26,370 bases of DNA from a virus. Under the pieces are notes generated by a model. It was not told the DNA's origin. It saw only the letters and a program-made list of their open reading frames with translations, and made no database searches. This document shows positions 294-24,278 of the stretch, one piece after another (within the stretch, counting starts at the first letter, position 1; each line of letters begins with the position of its first letter). The stretch lies in UHGV virus genome UHGV-0117952. The stretch is one strand, 5' to 3'. Made by a program: the position numbers and the translations under genes.

Positions 294-617
294 ATGCTTC
301 TGACAATGGAAGAGATTAAAGCCCAACTCCGGCTGGATGAGGATTTCGATGCTGATGACCGCCATCTGCAACTGCTGGCCTGTGCGGCGCAAAAGCGGAC
401 GGAAACGTATCTGAACCGGAAGCTCTATGCACCGGATGAAACCATTCCGGACAGCGATCCGGACGGGCTGCACCTGCCGGATGATATTCGTCTGGGGATG
501 CTGATGCTTATCAGCCATTTTTACGAAAACCGCTCGTCGGTTACGGAAGTGGAGAAACTCGACATGCCGCAGAGTTTTGGCTGGCTTGTCGGCCCGTACA
601 GGTACTTTCCGCAATGA
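294..617 (+). CDS. head-tail connector / DNA-packaging (gp6-like) protein
   Basis: 107 aa, acidic, position and size typical of gp6-like head-tail connector proteins; stop overlaps the next start (ATGA at 614-617). Confidence 0.65.
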   Translation: MLLTMEEIKAQLRLDEDFDADDRHLQLLACAAQKRTETYLNRKLYAPDETIPDSDPDGLHLPDDIRLGMLMLISHFYENRSSVTEVEKLDMPQSFGWLVGPYRYFPQ

Positions 618-1024
618 AAATTCGTCAGGCGCAGACCAGCGCAACCTACATTCTGCCGGACCCCGGTGAACTGAATAAACGCGTCCTGATCCGCCAGCGG
701 GTGGATATGCCCGCGGATAACTTTGGCGTGGAGCCTCAATACCCGGTTGCGTTCCGGACATGGGCGAAGGTTGTCCAGACCAGTGCCACCACCTGGCAGG
801 AAACCGCGCAGACCGGTGACGCCATCACCCATTACATCACCATTCGTTACCGCCGGGGGATCACCGCTGATTATGAGGTGGTCTGGGGTGACAGTGTGTA
901 CCGGGTGAAACGTCAGCGCGATCTGAACGGGGCGCGGCGCTTTCTGCTGCTGGAGTGTACGGAGCTGGGCGAATGTAGGCAGAGTCACGGAGGCAACAAT
1001 GACGACTTCCTTTTTGCACGTTGA
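614..1024 (+). CDS. head-tail adaptor / head closure protein
   Basis: 136 aa ORF translationally coupled to the connector; size and position fit head-closure (gp16-like) proteins; recalled similarity only. Confidence 0.6.
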   Translation: MKIRQAQTSATYILPDPGELNKRVLIRQRVDMPADNFGVEPQYPVAFRTWAKVVQTSATTWQETAQTGDAITHYITIRYRRGITADYEVVWGDSVYRVKRQRDLNGARRFLLLECTELGECRQSHGGNNDDFLFAR

Positions 1025-1505
1025 TTTTCAGCAGCCCGCGGAGATGCGCTTTAACCGCGCCCGTGTCCGGCGGGCGTTTGTCACGATTGGTCAGCGTCAT
1101 ATGCGTGATGCCCGTCGGCTGGTGATGCGCCGTGCGCGGTCGGCACCGGGTGAAAACCCCGGTTATCAGACCGGACGCCTGGCTCGTTCGATTGGTTACA
1201 TGGTACCCAGAGCCAGTAAACATCGCCCTGGTTTTATGGCACGTATAGCCCCTAACCAGCGTAATGGAGAGGGAAACCGCCGTATCACCGGTGATTTTTA
1301 TCCGGCTTTTTTGTTCTATGGCGTGAGGCGAGGTGCAAAGCGTCGTCGCAGCCATCATCGTGGTGCATCCGGTGGCAGCGGCTGGCGACTGGCTCCACGT
1401 AATAACTTCATGGTGGAAACGCTTGAAAAGAACCACAGCTGGACACGCTATTTTCTGGCGCGGGAATTGCGTAAATCACTGAAGCCGGAGCGACGACACA
1501 GATGA
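999..1505 (+). CDS. HK97 gp10-like tail-completion / neck protein
   Basis: 168 aa ORF with GGAGG Shine-Dalgarno at 985-989; Arg-rich; position between head closure and sheath genes. Confidence 0.55.
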   Translation: MTTSFLHVDFQQPAEMRFNRARVRRAFVTIGQRHMRDARRLVMRRARSAPGENPGYQTGRLARSIGYMVPRASKHRPGFMARIAPNQRNGEGNRRITGDFYPAFLFYGVRRGAKRRRSHHRGASGGSGWRLAPRNNFMVETLEKNHSWTRYFLARELRKSLKPERRHR

Positions 1506-2062
1506 AACTGACGCCTGTTATTGCTGCGCTGCGTGCCCGCTGCCCGTATTTTGAAAACCGGGTGGCAGGCGCGGCACAGTTCAAAAATCTGCCGGAGGTC
1601 GGAAAGCTGAGACTCCCGGCGGCGTATGTGGTACCGGGGGATGATTCTCCGGGAGAAAACAAAAGCCAGACCGACTACTGGCAGGAGCTGAAAGAGGGCT
1701 TCTCCGTGGTTGTCATACTGAGTAACGGGCGTGATGAGCGCGGTCAGTTTGCCTCGTATGATGTGGTGGACGATGTCCGGCAGATGCTCTTTAAGGCTCT
1801 GCTGGGCTGGAACCCGGAAGCGTGCGGTAACCCGATTACCTATGACGGCGGCACGCTGCTGGATCTGAATCGTCATGAGCTGATTTATCAGTTCGATTTT
1901 TCGGTCATCAGCGAGCTGACCGAAGACGATACCCGCCAGCAGGATGACCTGAACAGTCTGGATGAACTGCGAACGCTGGCGATTGATGTTGATTATCTCG
2001 AGCCCGGTAACGGGCCTGACGGCGATATCGAACATCACACCGAAATAACCCTTCCTTCCTGA
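1502..2062 (+). CDS. tail terminator / sheath-neck protein (family uncertain)
   Basis: 186 aa ORF, ATGA overlap with the upstream gene, immediately upstream of the sheath gene. Confidence 0.5.
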   Translation: MKLTPVIAALRARCPYFENRVAGAAQFKNLPEVGKLRLPAAYVVPGDDSPGENKSQTDYWQELKEGFSVVVILSNGRDERGQFASYDVVDDVRQMLFKALLGWNPEACGNPITYDGGTLLDLNRHELIYQFDFSVISELTEDDTRQQDDLNSLDELRTLAIDVDYLEPGNGPDGDIEHHTEITLPS

Positions 2063-2224
2063 GGATCCTCATGTTTGTCAAACCTGTTAAAGGGCGGTCA
2101 GTTCCTGACCCTGCCCGCGGCGACCTTTTGCCCGCTGAGGGGCGAAATGTTGACGAGAACAACTACTGGCTGCGCCGTGAAGCAGCGGGTGATATCCGGC
2201 GCGTGAATAAAAAGGTGAATACCG

Positions 2225-3721
2225 ATGACGATAAGATTTAACACCATTCCGTCGAATACGCTGGTTCCGATTTTTTATGCGGAAATGGATAACTCGGCGG
2301 CGAATACTGCACAGGACAGCGGAGCATCGCTGCTGATTGGTCATGCCAATAACGGTGCAGAGATTGTTGCCAACAGTCTGGTGCTGATGCCATCGGCAGA
2401 CTATGCACGCCAGATTTGTGGTGCGGGAAGTCAGCTGGCGCGTATGGTCGAGGCTTATCGCCAGACCGACCCGTTTGGTGAACTGTATGTGATTGCCGTT
2501 CCTGAATCCACGGGCGCGGCGGCAACAGTTACGCTGACGGTGACCGGCGCGGCAACCGAAACCGGCACGGTGAATGTTTATGTGGGACGTACCCGCGTGC
2601 AGGCACCAGTGACCAACGGCGATAACGTCGAGACGATTGCCAGCAGTATCAAAGATGCCATCAATGCCGTTCCGACCCTGCCGTTTACTGCCTCATCTTC
2701 GGCAGGCGTGGTCACACTGACCGCGCGTCATAAGGGGCTTTGCGGGAATGAAATTCCTGTCAGCCTCAATTACTACGGCTTTGGTGGGGGCGAAGTGCTG
2801 CCAGCGGGCGTACAGATTGCCGTGGCGACGGGTACCGCCGGAACGGGTGCTCCTGTTCTCACCGGCGCGGTGGCTGCAATGGCGGATGAGCCGTTTGATT
2901 ATATCGGCCTGCCGTTCAACGACACGGCCTCCGTTAACACGCTGGTGACCGAGATGAACGATACCAGCGGTCGCTGGAGCTATGCGCGTCAGCTGTATGG
3001 TCATGTGTATACGGCAAAGATCGGCACGCTGTCAGAACTGGTGACCGCAGGTGACCAGTTTAACCAGCAGCACATCACCCTGGCGGGATACGAAAAAGAG
3101 ACCCAGACGCCTGCCGACGAGCTGGCGGCAAGCCGTACCGCCCGCGCAGCGGTGTTTATTCGCAACGATCCGGCACGTCCCACGCAGACCGGTGAGCTGG
3201 TGGGTATGCTGCCTGCGCCGAAGGGGAAACGGTTCACGATGACCGAACAACAGACCCTGCTGTCTCATGGCGTGGCAACGGCGTATGTCGAAAGCGGGGT
3301 GCTGCGCATTCAGCGTGATGTCACCACGTACAGGAAAAACGCTTACGGTGTTGCGGATAACAGCTACCTCGACAGCGAGACGCTGCATACCAGCGCGTAT
3401 GTGCTGCGCAAACTGAAATCCGTCATTACCAGTAAGTACGGGCGTCACAAGCTTGCCAGCGACGGTACCCGCTTTGGTCCCGGTCAGGCGATTGTCACCC
3501 CGGCGGTGATCAAAGGGGAACTGCTGGCAACCTACCGTCAGCTTGAGCGTGCGGGGATCGTGGAAAACTACGAACTGTTTAAGCAGTACCTGGTTGTGGA
3601 GCGTGATGCCAGCGATCCGAACCGCCTGAACACGCTGTTCCCGCCTGACTATGTTAACCAGTTGCGTGTCTTTGCCGTGGTTAACCAGTTCCGTCTTCAG
3701 TATTCAGAGGAGTCTGCATAA
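2225..3721 (+). CDS. contractile tail sheath protein (Mu gpL-like)
   Basis: 498 aa; Gly/Thr/Ala-rich composition and length typical of Mu-type sheath proteins; followed directly by tube and chaperone genes. Confidence 0.85.
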   Translation: MTIRFNTIPSNTLVPIFYAEMDNSAANTAQDSGASLLIGHANNGAEIVANSLVLMPSADYARQICGAGSQLARMVEAYRQTDPFGELYVIAVPESTGAAATVTLTVTGAATETGTVNVYVGRTRVQAPVTNGDNVETIASSIKDAINAVPTLPFTASSSAGVVTLTARHKGLCGNEIPVSLNYYGFGGGEVLPAGVQIAVATGTAGTGAPVLTGAVAAMADEPFDYIGLPFNDTASVNTLVTEMNDTSGRWSYARQLYGHVYTAKIGTLSELVTAGDQFNQQHITLAGYEKETQTPADELAASRTARAAVFIRNDPARPTQTGELVGMLPAPKGKRFTMTEQQTLLSHGVATAYVESGVLRIQRDVTTYRKNAYGVADNSYLDSETLHTSAYVLRKLKSVITSKYGRHKLASDGTRFGPGQAIVTPAVIKGELLATYRQLERAGIVENYELFKQYLVVERDASDPNRLNTLFPPDYVNQLRVFAVVNQFRLQYSEESA

Positions 3722-4077
3722 TGGCCCGTATCGGGGGAACCTGTTATTTCAAAATTGACGGTCAACAGCTATCGCTGACCGGCGGCATTGAGGTGCCCAT
3801 GAACAGGACGGTCAATGATGACATCATCGGCCTGGACGGTTCAGTGGACCGCAAGGAAACTCACCGTGCGCCTTATGTCAAAGGGACTTTCAAGGTGCCG
3901 AAGAATTTTCCGGTGAACAAAATCACCTCGTCTGATGAGATGACTATCACTGCCGAGCTGGCGAACGGTCAGGTCTATGTACTGTCGTCTGCCTGGCTGC
4001 ACGGCGAAGCGAACCATAATGCCGAAGAAGGCACGGTTGATCTTGAGTTCCACGGTGAAGAAGGGGATTACCAGTAA
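3721..4077 (+). CDS. tail tube protein (Mu gpM-like)
   Basis: 118 aa ORF, TAATG overlap with the sheath gene; canonical sheath-tube pair. Confidence 0.8.
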   Translation: MARIGGTCYFKIDGQQLSLTGGIEVPMNRTVNDDIIGLDGSVDRKETHRAPYVKGTFKVPKNFPVNKITSSDEMTITAELANGQVYVLSSAWLHGEANHNAEEGTVDLEFHGEEGDYQ

Positions 4078-4346
4078 TGAAAGAGCTTGAGTTAAAGAAA
4101 CCGATTACTGCTCATGGCGAGACACTCTCCGTACTGGAGTTTGATGAGCCCACCGGGAAGGATGTCCGCGAGCTGGGGTATCCCTACCAGATGAATCAGG
4201 ATGAGTCAGTCAAACTTCTGGCGCATGTGGTGTCGAAATACATTGTGCGGCTGGCGAAAGTGCCGCAAAGCTCTGTCGACCAGATGTCTCCGGCAGACCT
4301 GAATGCAGCGGCGTGGCTTGTGGCTGGTTTTTTCCTCCAGGCCTGA
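4077..4346 (+). CDS. tail assembly chaperone (short, in-frame product)
   Basis: 89 aa ORF between tube and tape measure; overlapped at its 3' end by a -1 frame ORF (4313-4495) with slippery heptamer T_TTT_TTC at 4328-4334. Confidence 0.7.
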   Translation: MKELELKKPITAHGETLSVLEFDEPTGKDVRELGYPYQMNQDESVKLLAHVVSKYIVRLAKVPQSSVDQMSPADLNAAAWLVAGFFLQA

Positions 4347-4495
4347 CGGCTGAATACCTCACTGATCGCTTCTTTGACTGCGCCAGCTACTGGCGCATTA
4401 ATCCTTTCGAATTGCTGAATATGCCGATCAGTGAAATTCCCTTACTGGTCAGTCAGGCAAACAGGATAGAGCAGGAGAAACGCACACATGGCTGA
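4077..4495 (+). CDS. tail assembly chaperone, long product by programmed -1 ribosomal frameshift
   Basis: Zero-frame codons GGT TTT TTC at 4326-4334 contain X_XXY_YYZ = T_TTT_TTC. The -1 frame continues open to 4495, overlapping the tape-measure start at 4488. Classic G/GT arrangement. Confidence 0.55.
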
Positions 4496-6320
4496 ATTTG
4501 AGCTTAAGGCGTTGATCACCGGTGTCGACAGGCTTTCTCCCGCGCTGTCGAAAATGCAAAAGAAAATCCGGGGATTTAAACGCCAGGCGGAAGAAGCGTC
4601 ACAGGGTGGGCTGGCGCTTGGGGGCGGACTGGCAGCGGGTCTGACGCTTTCCCTGAAATCTTATGCCGATCAGGAAAACGCCGCCACCGGGCTGAAAGTC
4701 GCCATGATGGATGCGAACGGCGAGGTTGGAAAGAGCTTTCAGGACATCAATAAACTGGCTATTGGCCTGGGTAACCAGCTACCTGGTACAACGGCTGATT
4801 TCCAGAACATGATGCAGATGCTGGTGCGTCAGGGGATCCCGGCAGAAAACATTCTGGATGGTGTGGGTAAAGCGACAGCTTATCTTGCGGTACAACTGAA
4901 AAAAACACCGGAAGCGGCTGCTGAGTTTGCTGCAAAGATGCAGGATGCTACCGGAACGGCGTCAGAAGACATGATGGGGCTGTTCGACACTATCCAGAAG
5001 GCGTTTTATCTGGGCGTTGACGATACCAACATGTTGTCCTTCTTCACTAAAACCAGTTCTGTTCTGAAGATGGTGAACAAGGATGGTCTTCAGGCTGCAC
5101 AGAGCCTTGCCCCCATCAGCGTCATGATGGATCAGATGGGGATGAACGGGGAGTCGGCAGGTAATGCCCTGCGAAAAGTTATCCAGTCCGGATTAAGCGT
5201 TAAGAAAATCAGGGACGTTAATAAAGTCATGGCCCGCCAGAAACTCGGGGTACAGCTCGATTTTACTGACGGCAAAGGAAGTTTTGGCGGTCTTGATAAC
5301 ATGTTCAGGCAACTGGCAAAGCTGCGAAAACTGACCGACGTTAAGCGAACAGGTGTACTTAAGGCAATATTTGGTGATGATGCCGAAACCCTTCAGGTGG
5401 TCAATGCACTAATCGATAAAGGAAAGGATGGCTACGATCAGATCCAGCAGAAGATGAATAAACAGGCCAGCCTGAATAAACGTGTTCAGGCACAGCTTGG
5501 TACGCTGTCCAACCTGTGGGAGGCAATGACAGGGACCGCAACTAACGGCCTTGCGGCTATTGGCGGCGCATTTTCTGGTGACGCTAAAAATATCACACAA
5601 TGGCTGGGGGAGTTGGGGGAGAAATTCACGAAGTTTGCGGATGAAAATCCCCGGGTTATTCGCGGCGTCGTCGGGCTTGCTGCCGGTCTTGCGATTCTGA
5701 AACTGGGATTGATGGGCGTGGGCAGTGCCATCAGTATTGTCAGCAGGATTATGTCGATGACGCCGATTGGCATGATTGCGACGGCGATTGCTCTGGCTGC
5801 GGGATTAATTATCACTAACTGGGATGTTGTCGGACCTTATTTCAAGAAGCTCTGGGAAACCATTTGTCCTTATTTTGAGGCAGGTTGGGAACTTCTGAAG
5901 AAGGTTTTTGCCTGGTCGCCGCTGGGGATGGTGATCAATAACTGGGGACCGGTTGTTAAGTGGTTTCAGGATATGTGGGACAAGCTGAAGCCAATTATTG
6001 AGTGGTTTACCGACAGTTCCGGTGACACGGTCGATGCCATTAACTCTGCGCAGTGGGGCGCGGGTGCTTATGATGCTTATGGGACGGGAATACCGGCGCG
6101 GGGATACACACCTTATCCGGCGGTGGATCCGGCTCAGTCAAACAACGCCTCCGATGCCACAGGCTCGAATCCCTTCATGATTAACAAAGCTTCTGTGCCA
6201 AAAGTTGATGGTGAGATCAAGGTATCTTTTGTGAATTCGCCTCCGGGTATGCGGGTTATGGAAACGCGATCCAGCGGTTTTGATGTCAGCCATGATGTTG
6301 GCTATACGCGGTTCAGGTAG
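4488..6320 (+). CDS. tail tape measure protein (Mu-like module)
   Basis: 610 aa, Ala/Gly/Leu/Gln-rich helical composition with a hydrophobic GxxxG-like C-terminal segment; sits directly after the chaperone frameshift pair. Confidence 0.85.
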   Translation: MAEFELKALITGVDRLSPALSKMQKKIRGFKRQAEEASQGGLALGGGLAAGLTLSLKSYADQENAATGLKVAMMDANGEVGKSFQDINKLAIGLGNQLPGTTADFQNMMQMLVRQGIPAENILDGVGKATAYLAVQLKKTPEAAAEFAAKMQDATGTASEDMMGLFDTIQKAFYLGVDDTNMLSFFTKTSSVLKMVNKDGLQAAQSLAPISVMMDQMGMNGESAGNALRKVIQSGLSVKKIRDVNKVMARQKLGVQLDFTDGKGSFGGLDNMFRQLAKLRKLTDVKRTGVLKAIFGDDAETLQVVNALIDKGKDGYDQIQQKMNKQASLNKRVQAQLGTLSNLWEAMTGTATNGLAAIGGAFSGDAKNITQWLGELGEKFTKFADENPRVIRGVVGLAAGLAILKLGLMGVGSAISIVSRIMSMTPIGMIATAIALAAGLIITNWDVVGPYFKKLWETICPYFEAGWELLKKVFAWSPLGMVINNWGPVVKWFQDMWDKLKPIIEWFTDSSGDTVDAINSAQWGAGAYDAYGTGIPARGYTPYPAVDPAQSNNASDATGSNPFMINKASVPKVDGEIKVSFVNSPPGMRVMETRSSGFDVSHDVGYTRFR

Positions 6321-6419
6321 TGTACAAAATGATTAATGTGTTTTTGTCTGGCATAATTTGGGTTTTCAGCTTTAAGTAGTTAATATAATCATTCCTTACA
6401 AATGATTGAAGGGATGATT

Positions 6420-6914
6420 ATGCGTATCTTTGTTTTTTTTATATCTGCACTTTTATCTTTTAACTTGGCTGCGGAAGAGTGTAAGTTCAGCTTTAATGAG
6501 TCAGAATTAATCTCTTCTATAGGTATTGCACCAGTTAAGCAAGAGATAATAAAGGATGAAGGAATAACTAAGCGGCAATATGAATTCAGAAGAGAATTAT
6601 CTTCTGAAGAAATGCTTAGTGATGACGCTGATGAAAAATATGAGCCGCAGTTTTATATATCTGTTTATAATCCATCATGCCCACAAAAGGTTATTGTTTG
6701 GTTTTTCAAAGACAATAAAAACACAATGGATTTAAGTAATGAGGTCCTTGCTGGTAGAGCGTTCAAGTATTTAACTGGTGTTAATGAAAGTATTTTTGAA
6801 AATAAAATGAAAAAGTTTTTAAAGGTACAGTCATTTGAATCTTTTGATGAAAGGACAGATTCTAAATTTATAAAGAGTGGTGATATTTATTCCATTGATG
6901 TTCAACTCAGATAG
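6420..6914 (+). CDS. AT-rich moron: small secreted/periplasmic protein of unknown function (164 aa from ATG 6420)
   Basis: ORF track starts at 6402, but ATG 6420 has GAAGGG 6 nt upstream. N-terminus MRIFVFFISALLSFNLAA/EE is a Sec-type signal peptide. About 30-35% GC against about 57% in flanking tail genes. Own terminator downstream. Confidence 0.6.
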   Translation: MRIFVFFISALLSFNLAAEECKFSFNESELISSIGIAPVKQEIIKDEGITKRQYEFRRELSSEEMLSDDADEKYEPQFYISVYNPSCPQKVIVWFFKDNKNTMDLSNEVLAGRAFKYLTGVNESIFENKMKKFLKVQSFESFDERTDSKFIKSGDIYSIDVQLR

Positions 6915-6933
6915 TAATTAAAAATATTAGGTT

Positions 6934-6989
6934 CCCGCCACATCTTCTGCGATGTAAATAACTGACAAAGCAGATTTGGCGGGTTTTTT
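6934..6989 (+). terminator. rho-independent terminator after the moron
   Basis: CCCGCCA (6934-6940) pairs with TGGCGGG (6977-6983), imperfect extended stem, followed by TTTTTT (6984-6989). Confidence 0.5.
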
Positions 6990-7004
6990 GTATCCGGAGT
7001 TTAT

Positions 7005-8333
7005 ATGACGTGGAAAGACAGGCTTCAGGATGCGTCATTTCGCGGCGTACCGTTTAAGGTTGAAGAAGAAAGTGCGGGAACCGGTCGCCGTGTGGAAACA
7101 CACGAATATCCGAACCGCGACAAGCCCTATACCGAAGATCTGGGAAAAGTCACTTTCCGCCCGTCCATCACAGCTTATGTGGTGGGAGATGACTGCTTTG
7201 ACCAGCGCGATCGCCTGATTGACGCGCTGAATAAACCCGGTCCCGGCACGCTTGTCCACCCGACATACGGTGAGTTGAAAGTCTGTGTTGACGGGGAAGT
7301 TCGGGTCAGCACATCGAAGAGTGAAGGGCGTATTGTCCGCTTTGACCTGAAGTTTGTCGAAGCGGGAGATCTCTCTTACCCCACATCAGGCGTGGCGACG
7401 GCGCAGACGCTGATGTCATCCTGTTCTGCACTGGATGACTGCATCAGTGACAGCTTCAGCGGTTTCAGTATCGATGGCGTGGCAGATTTTGTGCAGAACG
7501 ACGTCGTCGGTAATGTCGGCACAATGCTTGGGTATGTTTCTGATGCGATGAAAGTGGTGGATTCTGCCGTATCGGATGCCGCCAGGCTGTTGCAGGGGGA
7601 TATCTCGGTACTTCTTCCGCCGCCATCGTCAGGCAAAAATTTCGTTGAGCAGGTGCAGAAAATGTGGCGTACCGGGAAACGCCTTTATGGTAACGCCAGC
7701 GACCTGGTCACCATGATCAAAACGCTTTCCGGTGTCAGCCTCGGCAGCGATCTGCAACCGCGCGGCGTCTGGAAAACGGACAGTAAAACCACCGCCACGG
7801 CGACGCAGCAGCGTAACGTGGTTGCCAGCACCCTTCGTACGACCGCAATCAGCGAAGCGGCGTATGCCGTCACCCGATTGCCTGCGCCAACAACTTCCGC
7901 GGTGATGCAGAATTCCGCAGTGGGGCAGGCAACAACACCCGCGCAGAGCACTGGCTGGCCTTCCGTCACGCATCCGGCACTGAACAATGCACCGGCGGTG
8001 AAAAACACGGTTGACCTGCCGACGTGGGAAGAACTGACTGACATTCGCGACACACTGAATACGGCAATTGATAAGGAGTTGTCCCGTACAACCAGTGATG
8101 CGCTGTTTCTGGTGCTGCGCCGGGTGAAAGCAGATCTGAATGCGGATATCAACACGCGCCTTGAACAGTCTGCACGGATCATTCAGCGCACGCCGGATGA
8201 GGTTTTACCCGCGCTGGTGCTGGCGGCGACCTGGTTTGATAACGCGGCGCGTGACGCGGACATTATCCGGCGTAATGCCATTACGCATCCCGGCTTTGTG
8301 CCGGTGATCCCTCTGAAGGTGCCAGTGCAATGA
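7005..8333 (+). CDS. Mu gpN-like DNA circularization / tail protein
   Basis: 442 aa ORF with GGAG Shine-Dalgarno; N-terminal region and position (tape measure, then N, then baseplate hub) as in Mu-type tails. Confidence 0.75.
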   Translation: MTWKDRLQDASFRGVPFKVEEESAGTGRRVETHEYPNRDKPYTEDLGKVTFRPSITAYVVGDDCFDQRDRLIDALNKPGPGTLVHPTYGELKVCVDGEVRVSTSKSEGRIVRFDLKFVEAGDLSYPTSGVATAQTLMSSCSALDDCISDSFSGFSIDGVADFVQNDVVGNVGTMLGYVSDAMKVVDSAVSDAARLLQGDISVLLPPPSSGKNFVEQVQKMWRTGKRLYGNASDLVTMIKTLSGVSLGSDLQPRGVWKTDSKTTATATQQRNVVASTLRTTAISEAAYAVTRLPAPTTSAVMQNSAVGQATTPAQSTGWPSVTHPALNNAPAVKNTVDLPTWEELTDIRDTLNTAIDKELSRTTSDALFLVLRRVKADLNADINTRLEQSARIIQRTPDEVLPALVLAATWFDNAARDADIIRRNAITHPGFVPVIPLKVPVQ

Positions 8334-9409
8334 ACGACAATGTCACGCTACGGGTAAATGGCCGGGAGTGGAATGGCTGGACATCGGTGCGCATCGGTGC
8401 CGGTATTGAACGGCTGGCGCGGGATTTCAGTGTGGAGATCACCCGCCAGTGGCCGGGAGATGAGGGTATCACCACGCTTCAGCCGCGCATTAAAAACGGT
8501 TCAAAAGTGGAGGTGCTGATTGGTGATGAGCTGGTGATCACCGGCTGGGTGGAGGCGACGCCCGTTCGTTACGATGCCCGTTCGGTCAGCACCGGTATTG
8601 CCGGACGTAGTCTGACGGCTGACCTGATTGACTGTGCAGCCGAACCGACACAGTTTAACGGACGCTCGCTGGTGCAGATTGCGCAGGCGCTTGCTGCGCC
8701 TTTCGGCATTGAGGTGGTGAACAGCGGTGCGCCGTCGGGTGTTATTCCTGATGTTCAGCCTGATCACGGTGAAACGGTGATTGAGGTAATAAACAAAATA
8801 CTCGGTCAGCAGCAGGCGCTGGCTTACGACGACCCGCACGGCAGGCTGGTGATTGGCGGTATTGGCTCAACGCGGGCACATACTGCGCTGGTACTCGGGG
8901 AAAACATCCTTTCCTGCGATACGGAGAAGAGTATCCGGGAGCGGTTTTCTGTTTACCAGGTGGCGGGGCAGCGTGCCGGAAACGACGATGATTTCGGTGA
9001 GGTCACCACCACCGCGCTGCGGGCCCGCACAGAGGACGCATTTATTGCCCGTTACCGTCCGATGTATATCAGGCAGACAGGGCAGGCTACGGGGGCAGGC
9101 TGTATTGCCCGTGCGGACTTTGAAGCCAGACAACGGGCGGCGCGGACGGATGAAACCACCTATGTGGTGCAGGGCTGGCGACAGGGTAACGGTACGCTGT
9201 GGCAGCCCAACCAGCGGGTGATTGTCTTTGATCCGGTCTGTGGTTTCGACAATACCGAACTGCTTGTTTCGGAAGTCACGTTTACTCAGGACCAGAACGG
9301 CACCCTGACGGAAATCCGTGTCGGCCCGCCTGATGCTTATCTGCCTGAACCCGAAGCCCCCGGCGCGCGGAAAAAGAAAAAAGCCAGAGTACAGGAGGAC
9401 CCGTTCTGA
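8330..9409 (+). CDS. baseplate hub protein (Mu gpP / P2 gpD-like)
   Basis: 359 aa ORF, ATGA overlap with the upstream gene; position and size match Mu P-family tail proteins. Confidence 0.75.
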   Translation: MNDNVTLRVNGREWNGWTSVRIGAGIERLARDFSVEITRQWPGDEGITTLQPRIKNGSKVEVLIGDELVITGWVEATPVRYDARSVSTGIAGRSLTADLIDCAAEPTQFNGRSLVQIAQALAAPFGIEVVNSGAPSGVIPDVQPDHGETVIEVINKILGQQQALAYDDPHGRLVIGGIGSTRAHTALVLGENILSCDTEKSIRERFSVYQVAGQRAGNDDDFGEVTTTALRARTEDAFIARYRPMYIRQTGQATGAGCIARADFEARQRAARTDETTYVVQGWRQGNGTLWQPNQRVIVFDPVCGFDNTELLVSEVTFTQDQNGTLTEIRVGPPDAYLPEPEAPGARKKKKARVQEDPF

Positions 9410-9957
9410 TGAGGACGATTGAAGCCATGCAGCGACAACTCCTCGGCCTGATTGGGCGGGCCGTGGTGAAAAGCATCAGTGCCGCCACGAAATGTCAGAC
9501 CGTGGATGTGTCCCTGATTGCCGGTGAACCCAAAGCCGGGGTTGAACATCTTGAACCCTACGGTTTTACCGCAAGGGCAAACAGCGGCGCGGAAGCGGTG
9601 GTGTTGTTTCCGGATGGCGACCGTTCTCATGCGGTGGTTGTTACGGTGTCGGACCGGCGCTACCGCCTGAAAGGGCTGCAGACGGGGGAGGTGGCTGTCT
9701 ATGACGATCAGGGGCAGTCCGTGACGCTGACCCGGGAGGGGATCGTGGTGGACGGTGCAGGTAAAACGATCACGTTTCGCAATTCACCTAAAGCACGTTT
9801 TGAAATGGACCTGGAAGTGACAGGACAGGTGAAAGACCTGTGCGACTCCGGCGGCACCACCATGTCAGCGATGCGGCTTGCCTATAACGGGCATCGTCAC
9901 AGAGAGAACGGTCAGGGCAGTAACACCGACAAACCGGATAAAGCGATGGAGGCATGA
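9409..9957 (+). CDS. baseplate assembly protein V / central spike (Mu gp45-like)
   Basis: 182 aa ORF, TGATG overlap; size and place in the gene order as for gpV-type spike proteins. Confidence 0.75.
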   Translation: MRTIEAMQRQLLGLIGRAVVKSISAATKCQTVDVSLIAGEPKAGVEHLEPYGFTARANSGAEAVVLFPDGDRSHAVVVTVSDRRYRLKGLQTGEVAVYDDQGQSVTLTREGIVVDGAGKTITFRNSPKARFEMDLEVTGQVKDLCDSGGTTMSAMRLAYNGHRHRENGQGSNTDKPDKAMEA

Positions 9958-10382
9958 TGGAACTGTGGCTGACGGTGAACGGTAAACGCACCTGCGCCAG
10001 CGCACCGCTGGATCCGCTGACCCGCGCCGTGGTGATTTCCCTGTTTACCTGGCGGCGGGCGGAGCCTGATGACAACGCCGACGTCCCGATGGGATGGTGG
10101 GGGGATACCTGGCCTGCGGTACAGAATGACCGTTACGGCTCCCGACTGTGGCTGCTTCAGCGCAGCAAATTGACCAATCAGCTGGTGCAGACGGTAAGGG
10201 GGTATATCCGCGAATGCCTGCAATGGATGATTGATGACGGCGTGGTGTCCCGTATTGATCTGGATATCCGCCGCACCGGGATTAATGAGCTGGGTAACAG
10301 TATCACCCTCTGGCGTCGTGACGGACCGGTAATGATTTCTTTTGATGATCTGTGGAGTGCGATAACGCATGGCGGACAGTGA
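9954..10382 (+). CDS. baseplate protein (Mu gp46 / P2 gpW-like)
   Basis: 142 aa ORF, ATGA overlap, between spike and baseplate J genes. Confidence 0.7.
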   Translation: MMELWLTVNGKRTCASAPLDPLTRAVVISLFTWRRAEPDDNADVPMGWWGDTWPAVQNDRYGSRLWLLQRSKLTNQLVQTVRGYIRECLQWMIDDGVVSRIDLDIRRTGINELGNSITLWRRDGPVMISFDDLWSAITHGGQ

Positions 10383-11427
10383 ATTTCAGCGCCCGACGCT
10401 GGCAGAAAATATCAGTATGCTCCGTAACGATTTATTCGCCAGGCTGGACGTCAGCGACACGCTCCGGCGCATGGATGAAGACGTGCGGGCAAAGGTGTAT
10501 GCGGCGGCGCTGCATACGGTTTACGGGTACATCGATTATCTGGCAATGAACATGCTGCCTGACCTGTGCGATGAGTCCTGGCTGGCGCGACATGCTGCGA
10601 TGAAACGGTGTCCGCGCAAGGGGGCCACGGCTGCCAGCGGGTATATGCGTTGGGAAGGTGTCAGCGATGGCCTGAAGGTGACCGCCGGGAGTGTTATTCA
10701 GCGCGATGACCTGGTTCAGTACACGGCAACTGCCGATGCAACCAGCTCCGGTGGTGTCCTGCGCGTGCCGATCGCCTGCTCAAGTGCAGGCGCGGTCGGT
10801 AACGCTGACGACGGTACGTCATTAATCCTGGTCACGCCGGTTAATGGTCTGCCGTCTTCCGGCGTGGCAGATACCCTTACAGGCGGATTTGATACTGAAG
10901 AGCTGGAAACGTGGCGCGCCCGCGTCATTGAGCGGTATTACTGGACGCCGCAGGGCGGGGCTGACGGGGACTATGTCGTCTGGGCTAAAGAAGTGCCCGG
11001 CATTACCCGCGCATGGACATACCGTCACTGGATGGGAACGGGAACTGTCGGTGTGATGATTGCCAGCAGTGACCTGATTAATCCCATTCCGGAAGAATCA
11101 ACGGAAACGGCGGCAAGACAACACATTGAGCCACTGGCCCCGGTGGCAGGCTCTGATTTGTATGTATTCAGGCCGGTGGCACATACGGTGGATTTTCATA
11201 TCCGCGTGACGCCGGACACACCGGAAATACGGGCTGCCATCACCGCGGAGTTGCGTTCGTTCCTGCTGCGTGATGGTTATCCGCAGGGAGAACTGAAGGT
11301 ATCGCGTATCAGTGAGGCGATTTCCGGTGCGAACGGGGAATACAGCCATCAGTTGCTTGCACCGGTGGACAATATCTCCATTGCGAAAAACGAACTGGCG
11401 GTACTGGGGACGATTTCATGGACGTGA
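10369..11427 (+). CDS. baseplate J-like protein (Mu gp47 / P2 gpJ-like)
   Basis: 352 aa ORF; length and position typical of the baseplate wedge J family. Confidence 0.8.
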
Positions 11428-12002
11428 CAAACGATGATTACATCCGCCTGTTATCGGCACTGTTGCCGCCCGGTCCGGCGTGGTCAGCCAGCGATCCGGC
11501 GATTGCCGGTGCGGCACCGTCATTAACCCGCGTTCATCAGCGTGCGGATGCCCTGATGCGGGAGCTGGATCCGCGCACCACCACCGAACTGATAAATCGC
11601 TGGGAGCGTCTGTGCGGCCTGCCGGATGAATGTATTCCCGCAGGGACACAGACCCTTCGCCAGCGTCAGCAACGACTGGATGCGAAGGTTAACCTGGCGG
11701 GCGGCATCAATGAGGATTTTTACCTTGCACAGCTTGCTGCCCTGGGCAGACCAGACGCTACCATCACGCGATACGACAAAAGCACTTTCACCTGCTCATC
11801 TGCCTGTACTGACGCGGTGAATGCGCCGGAATGGCGGTATTACTGGCAGGTCAACATGCCAGCCGCCACCAACACCACCTGGATGACATGTGGTGATCCC
11901 TGTAATTCCACATTGCGTATCTGGGGCGACACCGTTGTCGAGTGCGTGCTTAACAAACTCTGCCCGTCGCATACCTACGTAATTTTTAAATATCCGGAGT
12001 AA
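11418..12002 (+). CDS. tail protein (Mu gp48 / P2 gpI-like, YmfQ/DUF2313-type)
   Basis: 194 aa ORF immediately upstream of the tail fiber gene, Cys-containing C-terminus; position as for gpI/gp48. Confidence 0.75.
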
Positions 12003-12005
12003 TCC

Positions 12006-14867
12006 ATGCATCGTATAGACACGAAAACCGCGCAGAAGGATAAGTTCGGCGCGGGTAAGAACGGTTTTACCCGTGGCAACCCCCAGACCGGTACGCCTGC
12101 CACCGATCTGGATGATGACTACTTTGACATGTTGCAGGAAGAGCTTTGCAGTGTTGTGGAAGCATCCGGTGCCAGCCTGGAGAAGGGGCGGCATGACCAG
12201 CTGCTTACCGCGCTTCGTTCGCTGCTGTTAAGCCGCAAGAATCCGTTTGGCGACATCAAATTGGATGGCACGGTGAAAACTGCTCTCGAAAATCTTGGTT
12301 TAAGAGAGACAGGAAGCAGCGGTGAAAAGATCCCACTATTAAGCACAGAAAATACGTGGAGCGGCAGGCAGAGTTTCAATGGTGGTGTTGCTGGTGAACT
12401 GGACGGTAACGCAGCTACCGCATCAAAGCTTAAGACGCCAGTCAGGATTGACGGTGTTGAGTTTGATGGATCGGCGGATATTTCTCTGCGCCGCGACATC
12501 ATTGATTACGACGCCCTCCAGCATAAAGTAATTCATGATATCGACTACGCCGGTATTTTTGACGGCGCGGATAATATGAGCCAGGGGTTCTGTATCTGTG
12601 ATACGCCGCAGGGAACTAGAATGTTTCTGCATCAGCCTGTATCGGGTGGCGTAAGGATTGTTGAAACGATATTTAACCCTGACGGAGAAAACGAAAACCC
12701 GACGGTCATTTCGTTTTCTCCCGTTTTCGCTGATATTGGTCACCAGAGTATCGGGGCTGTATGTGAAGACGATCGCGTGATGCTGTATACCCCGACCGCT
12801 GACGGCAAGGGTGTGAATATCATCAACTGGAATGGGGCTGACACCAGTCTGACAGATGTCACCCGTACGGAGATTTTCACCTCTGACTTTTTTACCGGGG
12901 ATGAAATTATAACGGTGGCATTGTCGGCAGACGGAAGCCTGTTGATTGTTCAGTCAAGTAATGAAGCAGTTCATCTTCATTACAACATGGATGATCGCCG
13001 CACAGTTTATGTTTTCGATCGCGCCTCTCTGACGTTTAAACACCGGATTTATCTGTCCACTCAGCCAATGGTGTCGCAGGCATTTCAGGGGATGGCCAGC
13101 GATGGTCATTATCTGTTTGCTTATTACGGTTATACAGGCGTATTTCTGACTCACCGCATTGTTGTATATAACCTGTCAACGGGCGAAGTTGTCAGACAGT
13201 TCAATGTGGATGGCGTTCGTGCCAGGTATGGCCGCCAGAAAATGCTGGGGAATGCAGAGCTGGGGTATCCCGTTTTGCAGGAAGCCGAAGGGCTGGCTCT
13301 CCATAACGGAAAACTGTATCTGCTCGATATGGATTTCTGGTGTCAGACAGCCGATGTGGTTTCTTTTGAGGGGGCATACTTTGCAGCACGTGCAACAAAT
13401 TTTTCTGGCCGTTCCCCGGTGAATCCATCTTACTGGACGCCTACAGCATATGGAACGGCGGCTGCAACGAAATATGATGCCACGAAGTCTTATACGTGTG
13501 GCGTGGCGACAAAACGCAGCAAAGCTGTGGTTTCCGTGGAGGCTTACGACGGCACAGGCTATCTGGTGGACTCCGGCGTGGCGTTTCCTGACAGCCATGC
13601 TAGCCTTTTTCTGAGTCCCAATGCTGTAAATATTGCCCTGTCACCCAATGAAGACTTCCAGGTGGCAGCCTATGAGCAGAATCTGCGCTCGCATCGCCCG
13701 TTATTTGAGGTCAGAAAGGAGGCTCCGGATACAGACACTTCTGCTGCTGTTTTTCGTTTGTACGGGGATGCGTTCCGAACCGGAGAATACACAGGCCGCT
13801 TCGTTCAGTGGAAACACCGACTGAACACCGTGCACGATTGTCTGGAAATACGCGCTGACGTGGATTTGTTGAGCGGTGGCGGGATTAACCTTTACTCAAT
13901 GAACGATACTCAGTCGGCGGGGCGCACAAGGCTTTATTGTACCGATGGCAGTGAGACCTGGTCTGTATTATTGAGTCCGGTCTCGCCGGCATTTCATCCC
14001 GACCAGGACAAGGCAATGAATCTGGGGTCATCGCCAAATCGCTGGAATGTGGCATACCTGCAGGGCGTGAATATTAAATCGGATGACGAAACCCAGAAGC
14101 GCATGGCCATCAGCACCACGCTGAAGGCGGGAGCTTTCCAGGTATCAACAGCCGGGAATCTGGGTATTTATGACGATTCTGCTGACGCTTATGTAATTGC
14201 AGCCCGTAGTGACGGCACTGCATTCATGCAGATGGATACAGATATTAACGGTGCATTCCGGCCATCGGTTAACAATACCAGCGACCTGGGTGCGCCCAAC
14301 AAAGCGTTCCGGAGCGTGTATCTCTGCAACTCGCCGACCGTTGTGTCGGATGCGACGTTAAAGGATACACCGCGCGATGCGACGGCAGCCGAAAACGCGG
14401 CATTTGCAGAAATAGCACGGCTTCCGGGCGTGTGGCGCTGGTTACAGAGAATTGAGGAGGAGGGCGAGGACGCGCGTCTGCACGCCGGGCCGACAGTCCA
14501 GGCCGCGATAGCGGTGATGGAGAAACACGGTCTGGACTGGCGGAAATACAGCGCATTTTGTCTGGATTCGTGGGAAGCGGAGGAGGCACAGTACGAAGAT
14601 ATACCGGAAGAGTATGAAGATATTCCGGTTCAGCCAGAGATTTATTCGGATGAAGGGGAGCTGTTGAGCGGGACAACCCGTGTGCTTACCCGACAGGCGG
14701 AAAGGGTTCTTGTTCGCCCTGCAACCGAAGCAGGAAGCCGTTATCGCTTCCGGAAAGAGGAGCTTCTCTGGTGGTGTCTACGTGCTGTTGTCAGCCAGGT
14801 GGATTTGTTAATGGAACGCTTTGTTGACTTAAATCGTCGTTTGATGAAGTTGGAGACTTCAGAATAA
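12006..14867 (+). CDS. tail fiber protein (953 aa) with candidate C-terminal S74-like intramolecular chaperone domain
   Basis: GGAG Shine-Dalgarno before ATG 12006. N-terminus resembles baseplate-attachment domains of myovirus fibers. Lower-GC central region. C-terminus contains VSDATLKD...[13 protein letters not shown], reminiscent of the SDxxLK...HxGxIAQ pattern of peptidase S74 chaperone domains. Confidence 0.8.
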
Positions 14868-15010
14868 ACAAGCCTTAATGAGTATCTGCTTAAAATAGTG
14901 TTATCTACAGATCAAACTTTAGTTGATACGAGTCACTGTCCTCCCCGTAACAACTGGAGTTAAAAGATGTGATGGCATATAAATATAACATCAAATAATT
15001 ATTTTTTTTT

Positions 15011-15040
15011 GCCCCTCACCCTTAATTTAGGGTGAGGGGC
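15011..15040. repeat. perfect 11-bp GC-rich inverted repeat (hairpin) with 8-nt spacer, flanked 5' by T9
   Basis: GCCCCTCACCC (15011-15021), TTAATTTA, GGGTGAGGGGC (15030-15040); T-run at 15002-15010 is upstream on the plus strand, so not a canonical intrinsic terminator in either orientation. Confidence 0.5.
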
Positions 15041-15079
15041 GTCAGATACAAAGTTAGGAGTATCTGTAGTTAAGTGTTT

Positions 15080-16169
15080 TTATATTTTTTCGCAAAAAGA
15101 AGAATAATCTCCACAGATTAAGCAACTGACAAGCTCTCTTTGTGCGGGATATATTTGGGACTCATTTACAAGCCCTGTATATGGTAAGAGTGATTTATGT
15201 ATCAAGTTAAAAACGTGAGACTTCTCATTAGTTGTTAAACTTTTTTTGGATAATATGGATGCCAAGTGCTCAACGCAAATAACCAGCCATGCATTAAACA
15301 TTTTTACTATTTCTGCTTCATTTTTATTGCTTGATAAGATATAAATCAAACCTGTTTGTAATACCAAGGCTCTTTGTTTAATGGAGAAAGATGTTTTAGA
15401 TAGATGTGGTTCTTCATGGCGATTCAGAGAGTAGTAGCCCTTTCTTGCCAGTATAGATATCGTATTAGCTACAGTTAGGCTCTGGCAAGAAAAAAGCATA
15501 TCCTCATAGACTGAAATTGATGGGTTAAATAAGATGTTGTTATTGATTAGCAACTCTCTTTTAAAGAACTTGAAGATTTTTAATGATCTAAAAAGATGGT
15601 TTTTTATAATATCTGCTTTATTCGTGTCTGCCTTAAATGGGCGTACAGGAACCCCTCTCCCTGTAGAGGAAACCTGCTTGAAATATACAATGTCACTATT
15701 GTTTTTATAAGCTATCTGAATACCATCGGACAGTAAGTCAGAGTGAATGGAATCATCAGAGTCTAAGAAAAACACATAGCGACCTTTTGCGGATTTTATT
15801 CCCTCATTTCGCGGCGCTGATGCATTCCCTGAACCAACTGCTCTACGGATAATACGATAATTTATTTCTCTCGAAATGTTATATTCAATGGCGGCAATGC
15901 TCCTGTCAGTGGAACAGTCATCAATGAAAATAACTTCAAAACAATTTTTATCTATAGTCTGATTGTTTAAAGATTTAATGCATTCGAGAATAAGGGTTTC
16001 TCGGTTGTGAACCGGAATAACAACTGAGACATCAAAGGGATAAATAGAATTAATTTCATTAATTACCGTTGTGATTTTTAGAAGAGAAGTATGCAGGGCT
16101 GTTGTTAAAACAGCAGAAGATGAAATGTTTTCTTTTTTAGTGTTGCCTTTTATAGTATAATAAGGGCAA

Positions 16170-16198
<29 letters not shown>
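15080..16198 (-). CDS. family-2 (GT-A fold) glycosyltransferase body; probable phase-variable gene
   Basis: 372 aa in this frame, with GT2 hallmarks VSVVIPVHNRE, FIDDCSTD, FFLDSDDS. About 30% GC. Frame has only a GTG start at 16198 with no usable Shine-Dalgarno and is open upstream through the repeat tract to a stop at 16265-16267. Confidence 0.8.
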
Positions 16199-16409
<211 letters not shown>

Positions 16410-16523
16410 TATGCAACCTCTAACGTTAATAATGTTTATGAATATTCAGAATGCTATCTCATAACATGAAGCATTATATCTGAACATTGTGACATGATTT
16501 AATGAAGTCATCAGCACATCATG

Positions 16524-16539
16524 CTGCAATGCATTGCAG
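16524..16539. promoter_or_regulatory. perfect 16-bp palindrome CTGCAATGCATTGCAG upstream of the glycosyltransferase locus (candidate operator)
   Basis: Read directly; lies about 115-130 bp upstream of the leader ATG (16409), and about 50 bp upstream of a TATAAT-like element on the minus strand (plus-strand 16474-16479). Confidence 0.35.
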
Positions 16540-16685
16540 TATAACTAACACGAGGGATTGTTTGCATGGTGATAGTTTTGTTGGTGATAAAATCAGCATA
16601 ATTAAATATGTTGGCGTACATTTTGAACATTTTTAAGCAAAGCAAATTATAAGTATAAAAATAGTTAATGTGAAGTTGTACTCAT

Positions 16686-16717
16686 GTAAAAAGCCCCGCA
16701 TTCTCTCGAAGGCGGGG
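16686..16717 (-). terminator. rho-independent terminator, minus-strand orientation
   Basis: Minus-strand RNA: CCCCGC, 12-nt loop, GCGGGG, then CUUUUU (plus-strand stem arms 16694-16699 / 16712-16717, A-run 16688-16692). Confidence 0.5.
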
Positions 16718-16810
16718 AAGATTTGAAAATTAATGGTACAAATTGACGATTTCATATTCTATTCTGTATTAGAATAAAAGTGAATATAATTATTTATTTT
16801 AGGTGATTTT

Positions 16811-16838
16811 TTAAAAAAAGCCCGTGGAAGCAACGGGC
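16811..16838 (-). terminator. rho-independent terminator, minus-strand orientation
   Basis: Minus-strand RNA: GCCCGU, 7-nt loop, ACGGGC, followed by U7 (plus-strand stem 16820-16825 / 16833-16838, A7 at 16813-16819). Confidence 0.55.
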
Positions 16839-17452
16839 ATAAAACGCGGAATTGATTAAGATCTGTATAATTTAATTTTCTGATTCTATCATGCATATCA
16901 TTCACAGTGAAGTTGGTAATTTAGTAAAACTAGTGATAATGCCACTCGGTTTGATAACAAGAGAAACCACAGCGTGGTTTCGTCGAACAGTTTATGAAGG
17001 ATATTCCCCCCAAATATACACTCGCTTTGTGCTGTAGCAGCGCAGATGCTGGTTGCTATTCTTACCGGGAACTGGGCTTACAAGGCAATAGTAGTGTGAC
17101 ATTCTTCATCGCGCACGTGCATATCCTGGCTGAAAATCGATGGATAGAAAATATCCGCAAAGGGAAGCGGAGCAGCATACCGTGGTGGGGGGCACATGTA
17201 TGGGGTGTTGGAAGTCTGATGGATTTCTTTGTACCAGACAGCTTGTATTTTCATCTTTTCTTTGTTTCTTTGCAGGTAATTATGAGTAGCAACAAATCCT
17301 GAATGGCTGGGTATACCGCAATAAATAGAGGCGGGCAAGTTGCCCACTTTTTCTTTATCTGTTGTTTCATCCACTGCCCAGCCAGGTCAAATAGCGTCTC
17401 ATGCTTCGCACAACAGAAAATAGTTGCACCCATTAACCACGGAGTTAAACGG

Positions 17453-18643: not shown

Positions 18644-18655
18644 GGAGCCTGACCG

Positions 18656-19174: not shown

Positions 19175-19231
19175 TTTTCATCCGGTCAGCCAGGCTGACC
19201 GGTTAACCCCCGATTCAGAAGTGAGAAAACC

Positions 19232-22099: not shown

Positions 22100-22113
22100 G
22101 GAGGTGACGAAAA

Positions 22114-24244: not shown

Positions 24245-24278
24245 GAAACGGATGATAACCTTAATAAATGCAGCTGTA

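Follow-up and report, generated by a model that had tools for sequence, protein, structure and literature searches.

A variable cargo slot in the tail operon of SfV-like prophages and its predicted exported-protein gene, ORF X

Overview

This report concerns open reading frame (ORF) X of the virus genome UHGV-0117952, which was analysed as a single strand of 26 370 nucleotides (the window). The gene lies in an insert of 684 base pairs (bp) at positions 6321–7004, between the tail tape-measure gene and a homologue of gene N in an SfV-like tail module. The tape measure/N junction is a cargo hotspot, and X is dispensable: among related prophages the junction is empty, carries X or carries one of several unrelated genes. 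It is very probable that X is an accessory gene for an exported protein, housed in this slot behind a hairpin that sequesters its ribosome site.

Insert anatomy and composition

The guanine plus cytosine (GC) content of the insert is 31.6%. ORF X has 31.3% GC (26% at third codon positions, GC3), against 51.5% for the tape-measure gene and 56.4% for gene N. A preliminary description, made from the sequence without database searches, had placed an AT-rich segment with an ORF between the tape measure and the next tail gene, and all of its elements were found at the positions given, including an exact TATAAT at 6384–6389 and a Shine–Dalgarno sequence (AAGGGA) with 5-nucleotide spacing to ATG 6420. 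The insert and its flanks comprise the following features.

4488–6320, + strand: tail tape-measure gene, 610 residues, from the ORF list; left flank of the slot
6321–6345, + strand: left edge of the cargo cassette, the first ~25 nucleotides past the tape-measure stop, alignable with SfV and empty junctions
6384–6422, + strand: leader hairpin of 14 base pairs (inverted repeat I7), with 5′ arm 6384–6397 (TATAAT), loop 6398–6408 and 3′ arm 6409–6422 (Shine–Dalgarno sequence and ATG 6420)
6409–6414, + strand: Shine–Dalgarno sequence AAGGGA of ORF X, from the sequence
6420–6914 (stop codon included), + strand: ORF X, 164 residues, from translation; phrog_8976
6420–6473, + strand: predicted signal peptide of X, 18 residues, MRIFVFFISALLSFNLAA, with predicted signal peptidase I cleavage before EEC
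6934–6989, + strand: junction terminator, with stem CCCGCCA (6934–6940) and TGGCGGG (6977–6983) and a T-run (6984–6989)
6996–7007, + strand: Shine–Dalgarno sequence GGAG and ATG 7005 of gene N, right edge of the slot; the CCGGAGTTTATATG motif is common to all junction types
7005–8333, + strand: gene N homologue (DNA circularization/tail protein), 442 residues, PF07157 DNA_circ_N, E = 4e-34; right flank of the slot

The tape-measure gene was labelled from identical E. coli records and phage SKA5 and from PF10145 in homologous loci. Over the 801 bp spanning the insert, identity to the window is 100% for eight listed complete E. coli genomes and 99.5% for phage SKA5. A GGGAUG(R)UNAUG context around the Shine–Dalgarno sequence is kept in the Kosakonia and Atlantibacter homologues. 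An Rfam search of 6321–7004 returned no known RNA family.

Polymorphism of the slot

The two flanks were joined and searched against 5426 complete E. coli genomes, requiring a coverage of at least 80%. The joined flanks matched 863 of the 5426 genomes (~16%), and the entire insert was present in 84. Junction contents were assigned for 48 full-length junctions, an evenly spaced sample from the matching genomes; a survey of this kind, for a different insert or none, had been proposed in the preliminary description. The slot was empty in 29 junctions and held one of four cargo types in the rest, and a fifth type was found separately.

29 of 48: empty junction, 60 bp, terminator present
5 of 48: X junction, Sec signal peptide
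8 of 48: 176-residue protein, N-terminal membrane anchor (L068 722–1404)
4 of 48: 148-residue OB-fold protein (PF12869), membrane anchor, opposite strand (L067 722–1310)
2 of 48: 225-residue protein, lipoprotein with LLGGC lipobox (L069 731–1542)
One other strain, same slot, outside the 48: 125-residue bPH_1 protein (L012 2575–3067)

Two of the eight junctions with the 176-residue protein were checked directly, and the other six were assigned from span length and annotation. The flanks of empty and X-bearing junctions are 93–99% identical. Phages SfV, SfI and SfII lack the insert, and the tape-measure stop and the start codon of gene N are 45 bp apart in SfV and 60 bp apart in typical E. coli prophages of the SfV-like type. 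The drop in composition, the ORF and the presence/absence polymorphism between near-identical flanks are clearly real and beyond chance.

The five cargos are mutually unrelated and all AT-rich (31–42% GC); signals for export or membrane anchoring are present in four of them. No PADLOC model matched any of the four alternative cargos. The OB-fold cargo matches phrog_8545, labelled 'superinfection exclusion Sie-like' (E = 1.5e-49); since it lies on the opposite strand, it must have a promoter of its own and is not driven by the late operon.

This pattern of presence, absence and alternative cargos is the strongest support for the idea, put forward in the preliminary description, that X is a moron. 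An accessory, compositionally deviant gene with a signal peptide in an empty or variably filled slot agrees with that idea; a recent transfer and a terminator belonging to X are not supported (see below).

In the Atlantibacter prophage (L009 7980–9778) two extra genes (506 and 93 residues, neither with a Pfam match) lie between gene N and baseplate gene P, and may represent a second cargo position in the SfV-like tail module.

The X protein

By its substitution pattern, ORF X is a genuine gene under purifying selection: the ratio of nonsynonymous to synonymous substitution rates (dN/dS) is 0.08–0.20 among close variants and 0.04–0.16 between lineages, where synonymous sites are saturated in the deepest comparisons. 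The start assigned by RefSeq and the Prokaryotic Genome Annotation Pipeline (PGAP) is ATG 6420 (WP_001219112.1), and some records use ATG 6402. The upstream ATG was rejected as the true start because the homologues all begin MR..., the Shine–Dalgarno sequence suits ATG 6420 and PGAP concurs. In one IMG/VR variant (L058, 4998–5000) AAG replaces the ATG equivalent to 6420; the start would there shift to an in-frame ATG two codons upstream (equivalent to 6414), giving MIKRIF... and a still workable signal peptide.

The 164-residue ORF had been described as carrying a Sec-type signal peptide (MRIFVFFISALLSFNLAA/EE). Heuristic analysis of the n-, h- and c-regions, used in place of SignalP, bears this out. 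The peptide has an arginine in the n-region, a 10-residue Kyte–Doolittle maximum of 3.0 and alanine at −1. Across the family the predicted signal peptides have 17–19 residues, Arg or Lys near the N-terminus, Kyte–Doolittle maxima of 2.2–3.7 and alanine at −1 in 14 of 16, and the layout (n/h/c, then x-x-Cys) is kept in 16 of 17 members despite varying residues. Reading X as a lipoprotein was rejected: there is no lipobox, the cleavage context is LAA/EEC with the cysteine at +3, and A/x-x-C is found across the family.

Mature X would have 146 residues and an isoelectric point of 4.9, with conserved cysteines C21 and C87; mature family proteins have exactly two cysteines. The predicted features suggest that X is a Sec-exported soluble periplasmic protein, in which C21 and C87 probably form a disulfide.

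X was modelled with AlphaFold2 (predicted local distance difference test, pLDDT, 88; predicted template-modelling score, pTM, 0.79). The model has an α+β domain in which a seven-stranded antiparallel sheet is predicted to pack against helices. Sequence searches gave phrog_8976 (unknown function) as the sole PHROGs result, no match in Pfam or NCBIfam, no match in PADLOC-DB 2.0 at E ≤ 1 and, in a profile search of PDB sequences, noise only (best E = 0.03 over 40 residues). The sole significant structural neighbour, found with Foldseek among predicted viral structures, is BFVD entry A0A8S5RVB8 from Siphoviridae sp. ctLeG9 (E = 7.7e-6, template-modelling scores of 0.65 and 0.60, 163 columns). This protein is phage-encoded and similar to X in length, and shares 13% identity with it. 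Its label, 'ABC transporter periplasmic binding protein', was assigned automatically and is doubtful because 180 residues is far below the typical size of a binding protein. The fold of X otherwise has no known relative.

Distribution and age of X

The X family is very small: at 90% identity it forms ~20 clusters in a set of 5.8 billion proteins, and at 50% identity it accounts for 12 of 1.84 billion representatives. Neither an exhaustive profile search of the 1.84 billion representatives nor a second profile search, of the 5.8 billion clusters, brought in relatives that were annotated or more distant. A GTDB genome scan gave one locus.

The order tape measure–X–N was found in all 55 phage-context loci, which come from E. 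coli, Salmonella, Kosakonia, Atlantibacter, Pantoea phage AH07, Yersinia ruckeri and metagenomes, with X identity falling from 100% to 27%. Over 13 lineages the identity of X tracks that of its flanks (Spearman coefficients of 0.89 with the tape measure and 0.93 with N), and X evolves faster than both. X has 31–42% GC in every lineage, against 45–59% for its neighbours; because low GC is durable across the X lineages, it is not a mark of recent transfer. Horizontal acquisition as a recent event, as the preliminary description had it, is contradicted by the fixed position in 55 of 55 loci and by divergence parallel to that of the flanks. The same description had named a core tail-operon gene conserved at typical GC as one outcome that would speak against a moron. 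The position of X is indeed conserved; the gene is neither core nor of typical GC.

No movement of X between unrelated phage backgrounds was seen among these loci, and the single non-phage copy is P0023 (33% identity to X). P0023 is chromosomal (L073 4001–4471, also L074), and 60 nucleotides separate it from a preceding 1079-residue autotransporter gene of the pertactin type with its terminator. P0023 has neither the signal peptide nor the first cysteine, and its GC content is 37% in a context of 52–59%.

Leader hairpin

Modelling of the leader RNA shows a hairpin predicted to sequester the ribosome site of X and conserved in relatives. The hairpin folds at −16.5 kcal/mol (z = −5.3; no equally stable fold in 200 shuffles). 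Averaged over the X ribosome site (−14 to +3), the unpaired probability is 0.04, whereas the ribosome sites of 16 other structural genes of the window have a median of 0.56 (range 0.31–0.72); none of 100 nulls with shuffled upstream sequence was as closed. Hairpins of differing sequence close the X ribosome site in L043, L048, L054, L049 and L006 (0.08–0.18), and a weaker one is found in L009. RNAalifold gave an 11-pair consensus with four compensatory pairs, in which 86% of cells are paired, compared with 37–66% in slid registers. The covariation score of 0.367 compares with 0.05–0.20 in slid registers and was reached by three of 500 shuffles. Drawn from eight distinct sequences, this covariation is supportive of the leader hairpin, not conclusive.

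Computed accessibility depends on where the transcript starts. For starts at 6321 or 6364 it is 0.04, and for a start at ~6396, about 7 nucleotides past TATAAT, it is 0.54, because the 5′ arm is then missing. An RNA thermometer was rejected, as the modelled hairpin stays closed up to 60°C. In the unrelated bPH cargo, too, a 5′ arm beginning with TATAAT is predicted to pair with the ribosome site of that cargo gene (0.23; two of 100 nulls). In AH07, L059, Y. ruckeri and L064, X begins 10–30 nucleotides past the tape-measure gene and its ribosome site is open (0.32–0.73).

Promoter candidates

Two candidate promoters were considered upstream of X.

6329–6357, + strand: candidate promoter P1, −35 ATGATT (6329–6334), 17-nucleotide spacer, extended −10 TGgCATAAT (6349–6357)
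6363–6389, + strand: candidate promoter P2, weak −35-like TTTTCA (6363–6368), 15-nucleotide spacer, −10 TATAAT (6384–6389)

P1 has a position-weight-matrix score of 9.5, the seventh best on the + strand of the window and not above shuffles of the AT-rich region, and its transcripts would still carry the closing hairpin. P2 scores 10.6, the fourth best on that strand, a value reached by 16% of shuffles of the same 160 nucleotides; its predicted start is near 6396, just past the 5′ hairpin arm. A consensus promoter scan listed neither P1 nor P2. A promoter conserved across lineages was rejected, as the sequences 5′ of the hairpin cannot be aligned and none of the best-scoring sites exceeds its shuffles. 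The preliminary description had counted a TATAAT-like element among the signs of independent expression: the exact match stands, set against a score at chance level and the identity of the motif as a hairpin arm. Independent expression of X is plausible.

Junction terminator

The terminator at 6934–6989 folds at −22.3 kcal/mol (z = −2.6). It was compared, as 6934–7004 of the window, with L001, L012, L013, L068, L069, L002, L004, L009, L061 and L064. A homologous element, ACCCGC-TTCG-GCGGGT with 6–7 T, followed by the CCGGAG Shine–Dalgarno sequence of gene N, is present in every lineage, whether the junction is empty, carries X or carries another + strand cargo. Stem changes preserve pairing across lineages (CCCGC/GCGGG, CCCAC/GTGGG and GGCCACC/GGTGGCC), CCCAC/GTGGG being the stem of the empty-junction phages. 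Cargo is placed between the tape-measure stop and this element. Because the terminator is also found in empty junctions, it is not specific to a cargo and belongs to the backbone. Thus a hairpin and T-run do follow X, as the preliminary description held, and their ownership by X is not borne out, since the element precedes gene N where there is no cargo.

In the window a 36-nucleotide structured insert (6941–6976) replaces the usual tetraloop, and the 7-bp closing stem and the T-run are intact. The loop insert is found in the window and all close E. coli relatives and forms a small stem of its own (CUGC/GCAG). In a related prophage whose junction is identical, a gene for an antitermination protein precedes the lysis and late genes, from which we infer that late transcription reads through the terminator and ordinary transcripts stop there.

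An intrinsic terminator within a read-through tail operon, directly before the gene N ribosome site, was present in every SfV-like lineage examined. An inverted repeat of 19 nucleotides (6930–6948/7064–7082, 79% complementary) joins the 5′ arm of the terminator to a coding segment of gene N. An antiterminator role for this repeat was rejected: the partner lies 3′ of the terminator and cannot act during transcription, and the repeat is probably due to chance.

Proposed function and alternatives

In the mechanism that we propose, the hairpin on read-through tail-operon transcripts would pair with the Shine–Dalgarno sequence and start codon, so that X would be poorly translated late. A transcript starting near 6396 would lack the 5′ arm, leaving the ribosome site open and X translated. 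The junction terminator would stop this transcript but be passed by Q-modified late transcription. X would thus be produced at a low level from the repressed prophage and would block superinfecting phages at the envelope, possibly phages whose tails are of the same type. An exclusion role is proposed because X is predicted to be periplasmic, the alternative cargos are mostly of envelope type (one of them Sie-like), X is linked to the tail module, and gp15 and Ltp offer precedents (discussed below). Promoter use and lysogen expression of X are what we infer for the intermediate steps. The whole chain, from dispensable exported cargo through fold-back-controlled lysogen expression to superinfection exclusion, is put forward tentatively, with confidence a little short of even. 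Exclusion as the function of X, suggested by analogy, is by itself possible but somewhat doubtful.

Several observations weigh against this proposal. The 'Sie-like' label of phrog_8545 is an untested annotation, and the argument from the hotspot is one of guilt by position. No sequence or fold link was found between X and characterized exclusion proteins. TATAAT has neither a usable −35 element nor a TG extension, promoter scores are at chance for the composition, and the motif may be present solely to pair with AUGAUUAUG; the other lineages with a leader hairpin show no evident promoter within it. P0023 sits on a chromosome beside an autotransporter gene and has no signal peptide. In AH07, L059, Y. 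ruckeri and L064 the short gap and open ribosome site probably mean late co-expression, which would fit a lytic-cycle role at least as well.

A bolder form of the exclusion proposal would make the slot a dedicated bay for envelope exclusion genes. X would be an injection blocker of new fold, specific for one tail type and shaped by co-evolution with the tape-measure and hub proteins, which it would recognize in the periplasm; it would be wired to the lysogen by fold-back and selected for AT-richness (for example for H-NS-dependent control). If so, X would exclude heteroimmune relatives with the same tail and be silent on late read-through. We regard this form as unlikely.

The main rival to exclusion in lysogens is a late lytic-cycle periplasmic function, favoured by the tightly coupled distant lineages. 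X would here be an accessory periplasmic protein co-transcribed with the tail genes, with the hairpin merely throttling its translation; it might block superinfection or the re-adsorption of progeny to infected cells or debris (as T5 Llp), or condition the envelope before lysis. X lies on the late-operon strand with no terminator between it and the tape-measure gene, four distant lineages have a 10–30-nucleotide gap and an open ribosome site, X shows strict linkage to the tail module and has diverged in parallel with it, and the promoter evidence is at chance level. Against this, the ribosome site is predicted to be sequestered on read-through RNA in the window and five lineages (0.04–0.18) and is modelled as closed up to 60°C, an odd design for a late gene; functional phages such as SfV do without X; and one alternative cargo, on the opposite strand, is certainly not driven by the late operon. 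We rate a late lytic role as a minority possibility.

X could also be a lysogenic-conversion factor with a host benefit unrelated to phages (stress, serum or colonization), like λ Bor and Lom. A signal-peptide protein encoded by an AT-rich late-operon cargo is the classic moron layout by the criteria quoted in PMC3594210 and PMC5567305, and the carriers include avian pathogenic E. coli (APEC), mouse-gut and human isolates. The family nevertheless spans very different niches, including plant-associated Pantoea and Kosakonia and also Yersinia ruckeri, a fish pathogen, and is tied to the tail module rather than to a host type; the span of hosts from the animal gut to plant-associated bacteria argues against a niche-specific virulence role. 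X is neither a lipoprotein nor an outer-membrane β-barrel like Bor and Lom, and no match to virulence-associated families was obtained. A conversion role appears improbable.

That X is a structural or assembly component of the tail, a core gene mistaken for cargo, is highly improbable. Its invariant position between the tape measure and the hub-associated N in 55 of 55 loci and its co-divergence would suit such a component, but X is absent from SfV, SfI, SfII and ~60% of E. coli junctions of the SfV-like type, which have flanking genes of 93–97% DNA identity; unrelated genes can replace it; and a cleavable signal peptide would take it out of the cytoplasm, the site of tail assembly. An inert insertion in decay, with an ORF, hairpin and signals that are due to chance in AT-rich DNA, has in its favour the chance level of the promoter-like matches, but is already refuted by selection (dN/dS 0.04–0.20, with synonymous sites saturated between lineages), by the confident fold prediction, by the conserved signal peptide and cysteines, and by the stability and covariation of the hairpin (z = −5.3, with compensatory changes), and has almost no probability left.

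Relation to known systems

As a kind of element, the late-operon moron or cargo gene is already well known. The moron criteria (Juhala/Hendrix; Juhala et al., 2000) were taken as quoted in PMC5567305 and PMC3594210. Like the late-operon morons HK97 gene 15, λ bor and lom, X is non-core, has lower GC than its structural neighbours and is present or absent in collinear relatives, with a −10-like element 5′ of the gene and a factor-independent terminator 3′ of it. Unlike a moron that moves freely and has arrived recently, X occupies a single slot in a single type of tail module and has diverged together with that module to 27% identity; its terminator belongs to the backbone and its promoter is a candidate.

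HK97 gp15 (Cumby et al., 2012 and 2015, as cited in PMC10884400) is reportedly a prophage exclusion protein that blocks tape-measure-dependent DNA entry. It may serve, with Ltp, as a model for X by analogy: both are small prophage-borne envelope proteins that act on the tape-measure protein, and the gp15 gene adjoins the tape-measure gene. Ltp, of Streptococcus phage TP-J34, is likewise a prophage exclusion protein that acts on the tape-measure protein and blocks DNA entry dependent on it (PMC3952083). X differs from both in type: gp15 resides in the inner membrane and Ltp is a lipoprotein, whereas X is predicted to be a soluble signal-peptidase-I substrate without a lipobox, and it has no sequence or fold similarity to either.

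The leader recalls the fold-back inhibition of read-through transcripts that Davis, Simons and Kleckner reportedly described in 1985 for IS10/Tn10. As in IS10, an upstream segment is predicted to pair with the ribosome site on incoming transcripts, and with the −10 element in the 5′ arm the gene's own transcript would lack that arm. Unlike IS10, X is a phage cargo gene and not a transposase, its internal start is predicted, and no antisense RNA partner is evident.

Variable cargo and defence sites are also said to have been described in 2022, by Rousset and colleagues, as P2/P4 hotspots. The X slot resembles these in its fixed site between conserved genes and its alternative unrelated AT-rich genes, sometimes on the opposite strand; it differs in that its cargos are single small proteins, mostly of envelope type, and no PADLOC model matched them. 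Moron positions 1 and 2 of phage P2 (PMC3573123) are variable sites of this kind and share the same resemblance to the X slot.

Literature searches with the protein accessions and for SfV-like morons and tape measure/DNA circulation morons found nothing on the tape measure/N slot. Several features appear to be undescribed in the literature searched: the slot with its set of cargos, the locked position of X and its divergence in step with its flanks, its stable AT-richness, and the fold-back-type leader hairpin. If the reading is true, a very common tail module of E. coli and Shigella prophages contains an undescribed cargo hotspot, and at least five uncharacterized small slot proteins, four of them envelope-targeted, are candidates for superinfection-exclusion screens. 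The leader would be a natural example of translational insulation of a moron, explaining how cargo can reside in a highly transcribed late operon without over-production. Low GC would be a stable, probably selected trait of an old resident gene, a caution against taking AT-richness as recent transfer. If only the ordinary parts hold, X is one more hypothetical moron protein.

Genomic setting of the window

The left 15 kb of the window is the head–tail and contractile-tail module of an SfV-like E. coli prophage with a Mu-type tail. Apart from the genes that flank the slot, it contains the following tail genes.

2225–3721: sheath
3721–4077: tube
4077–4346: tail chaperone, with a frameshift extension to 4495 (frameshift-extension ORF 4313–4495)
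After gene N: baseplate genes, then a 953-residue fibre ending at 14867

The preliminary description held that the tail operon is interrupted only at 6321–7004, which is essentially correct over 294–14867: the sole further gap, 4347–4487, is overlapped by the chaperone frameshift-extension ORF. The tail fibre (12006–14867, 953 residues) has a C-terminal Peptidase_S74 intramolecular-chaperone domain. The prophage of strain M8 and phage SKA5, otherwise near-identical, have instead a short fibre and an invertible fibre segment with a recombinase.

Directly 3′ of the tail-fibre gene is a second AT-rich island (15000–17000, 34–36% GC). It contains a family-2 glycosyltransferase ORF (15080–16198, − strand), which may be a cargo for surface-polysaccharide modification of the serotype-conversion kind. 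A P2-type tail gene set (17303–24056) lies directly 3′ of the SfV-like module and the glycosyltransferase island.

17303–18643: sheath FI
18656–19174: tube FII
19652–22099: tape measure
22114–22593: gpU
22593–23756: gpD

This set resembles the right end of a truncated P2-like prophage that adjoins the SfV-like element. The host small RNA gene CyaR/RyeE is found at 24161–24246 (− strand; Rfam RF00112, 100.7 bits) and, together with a peptidase U32 gene (24329–25690, − strand), marks the chromosomal border beside the P2-like remnant. The border region resembles the cyaR–yegQ locus, the site of P2 remnants in E. coli K-12.

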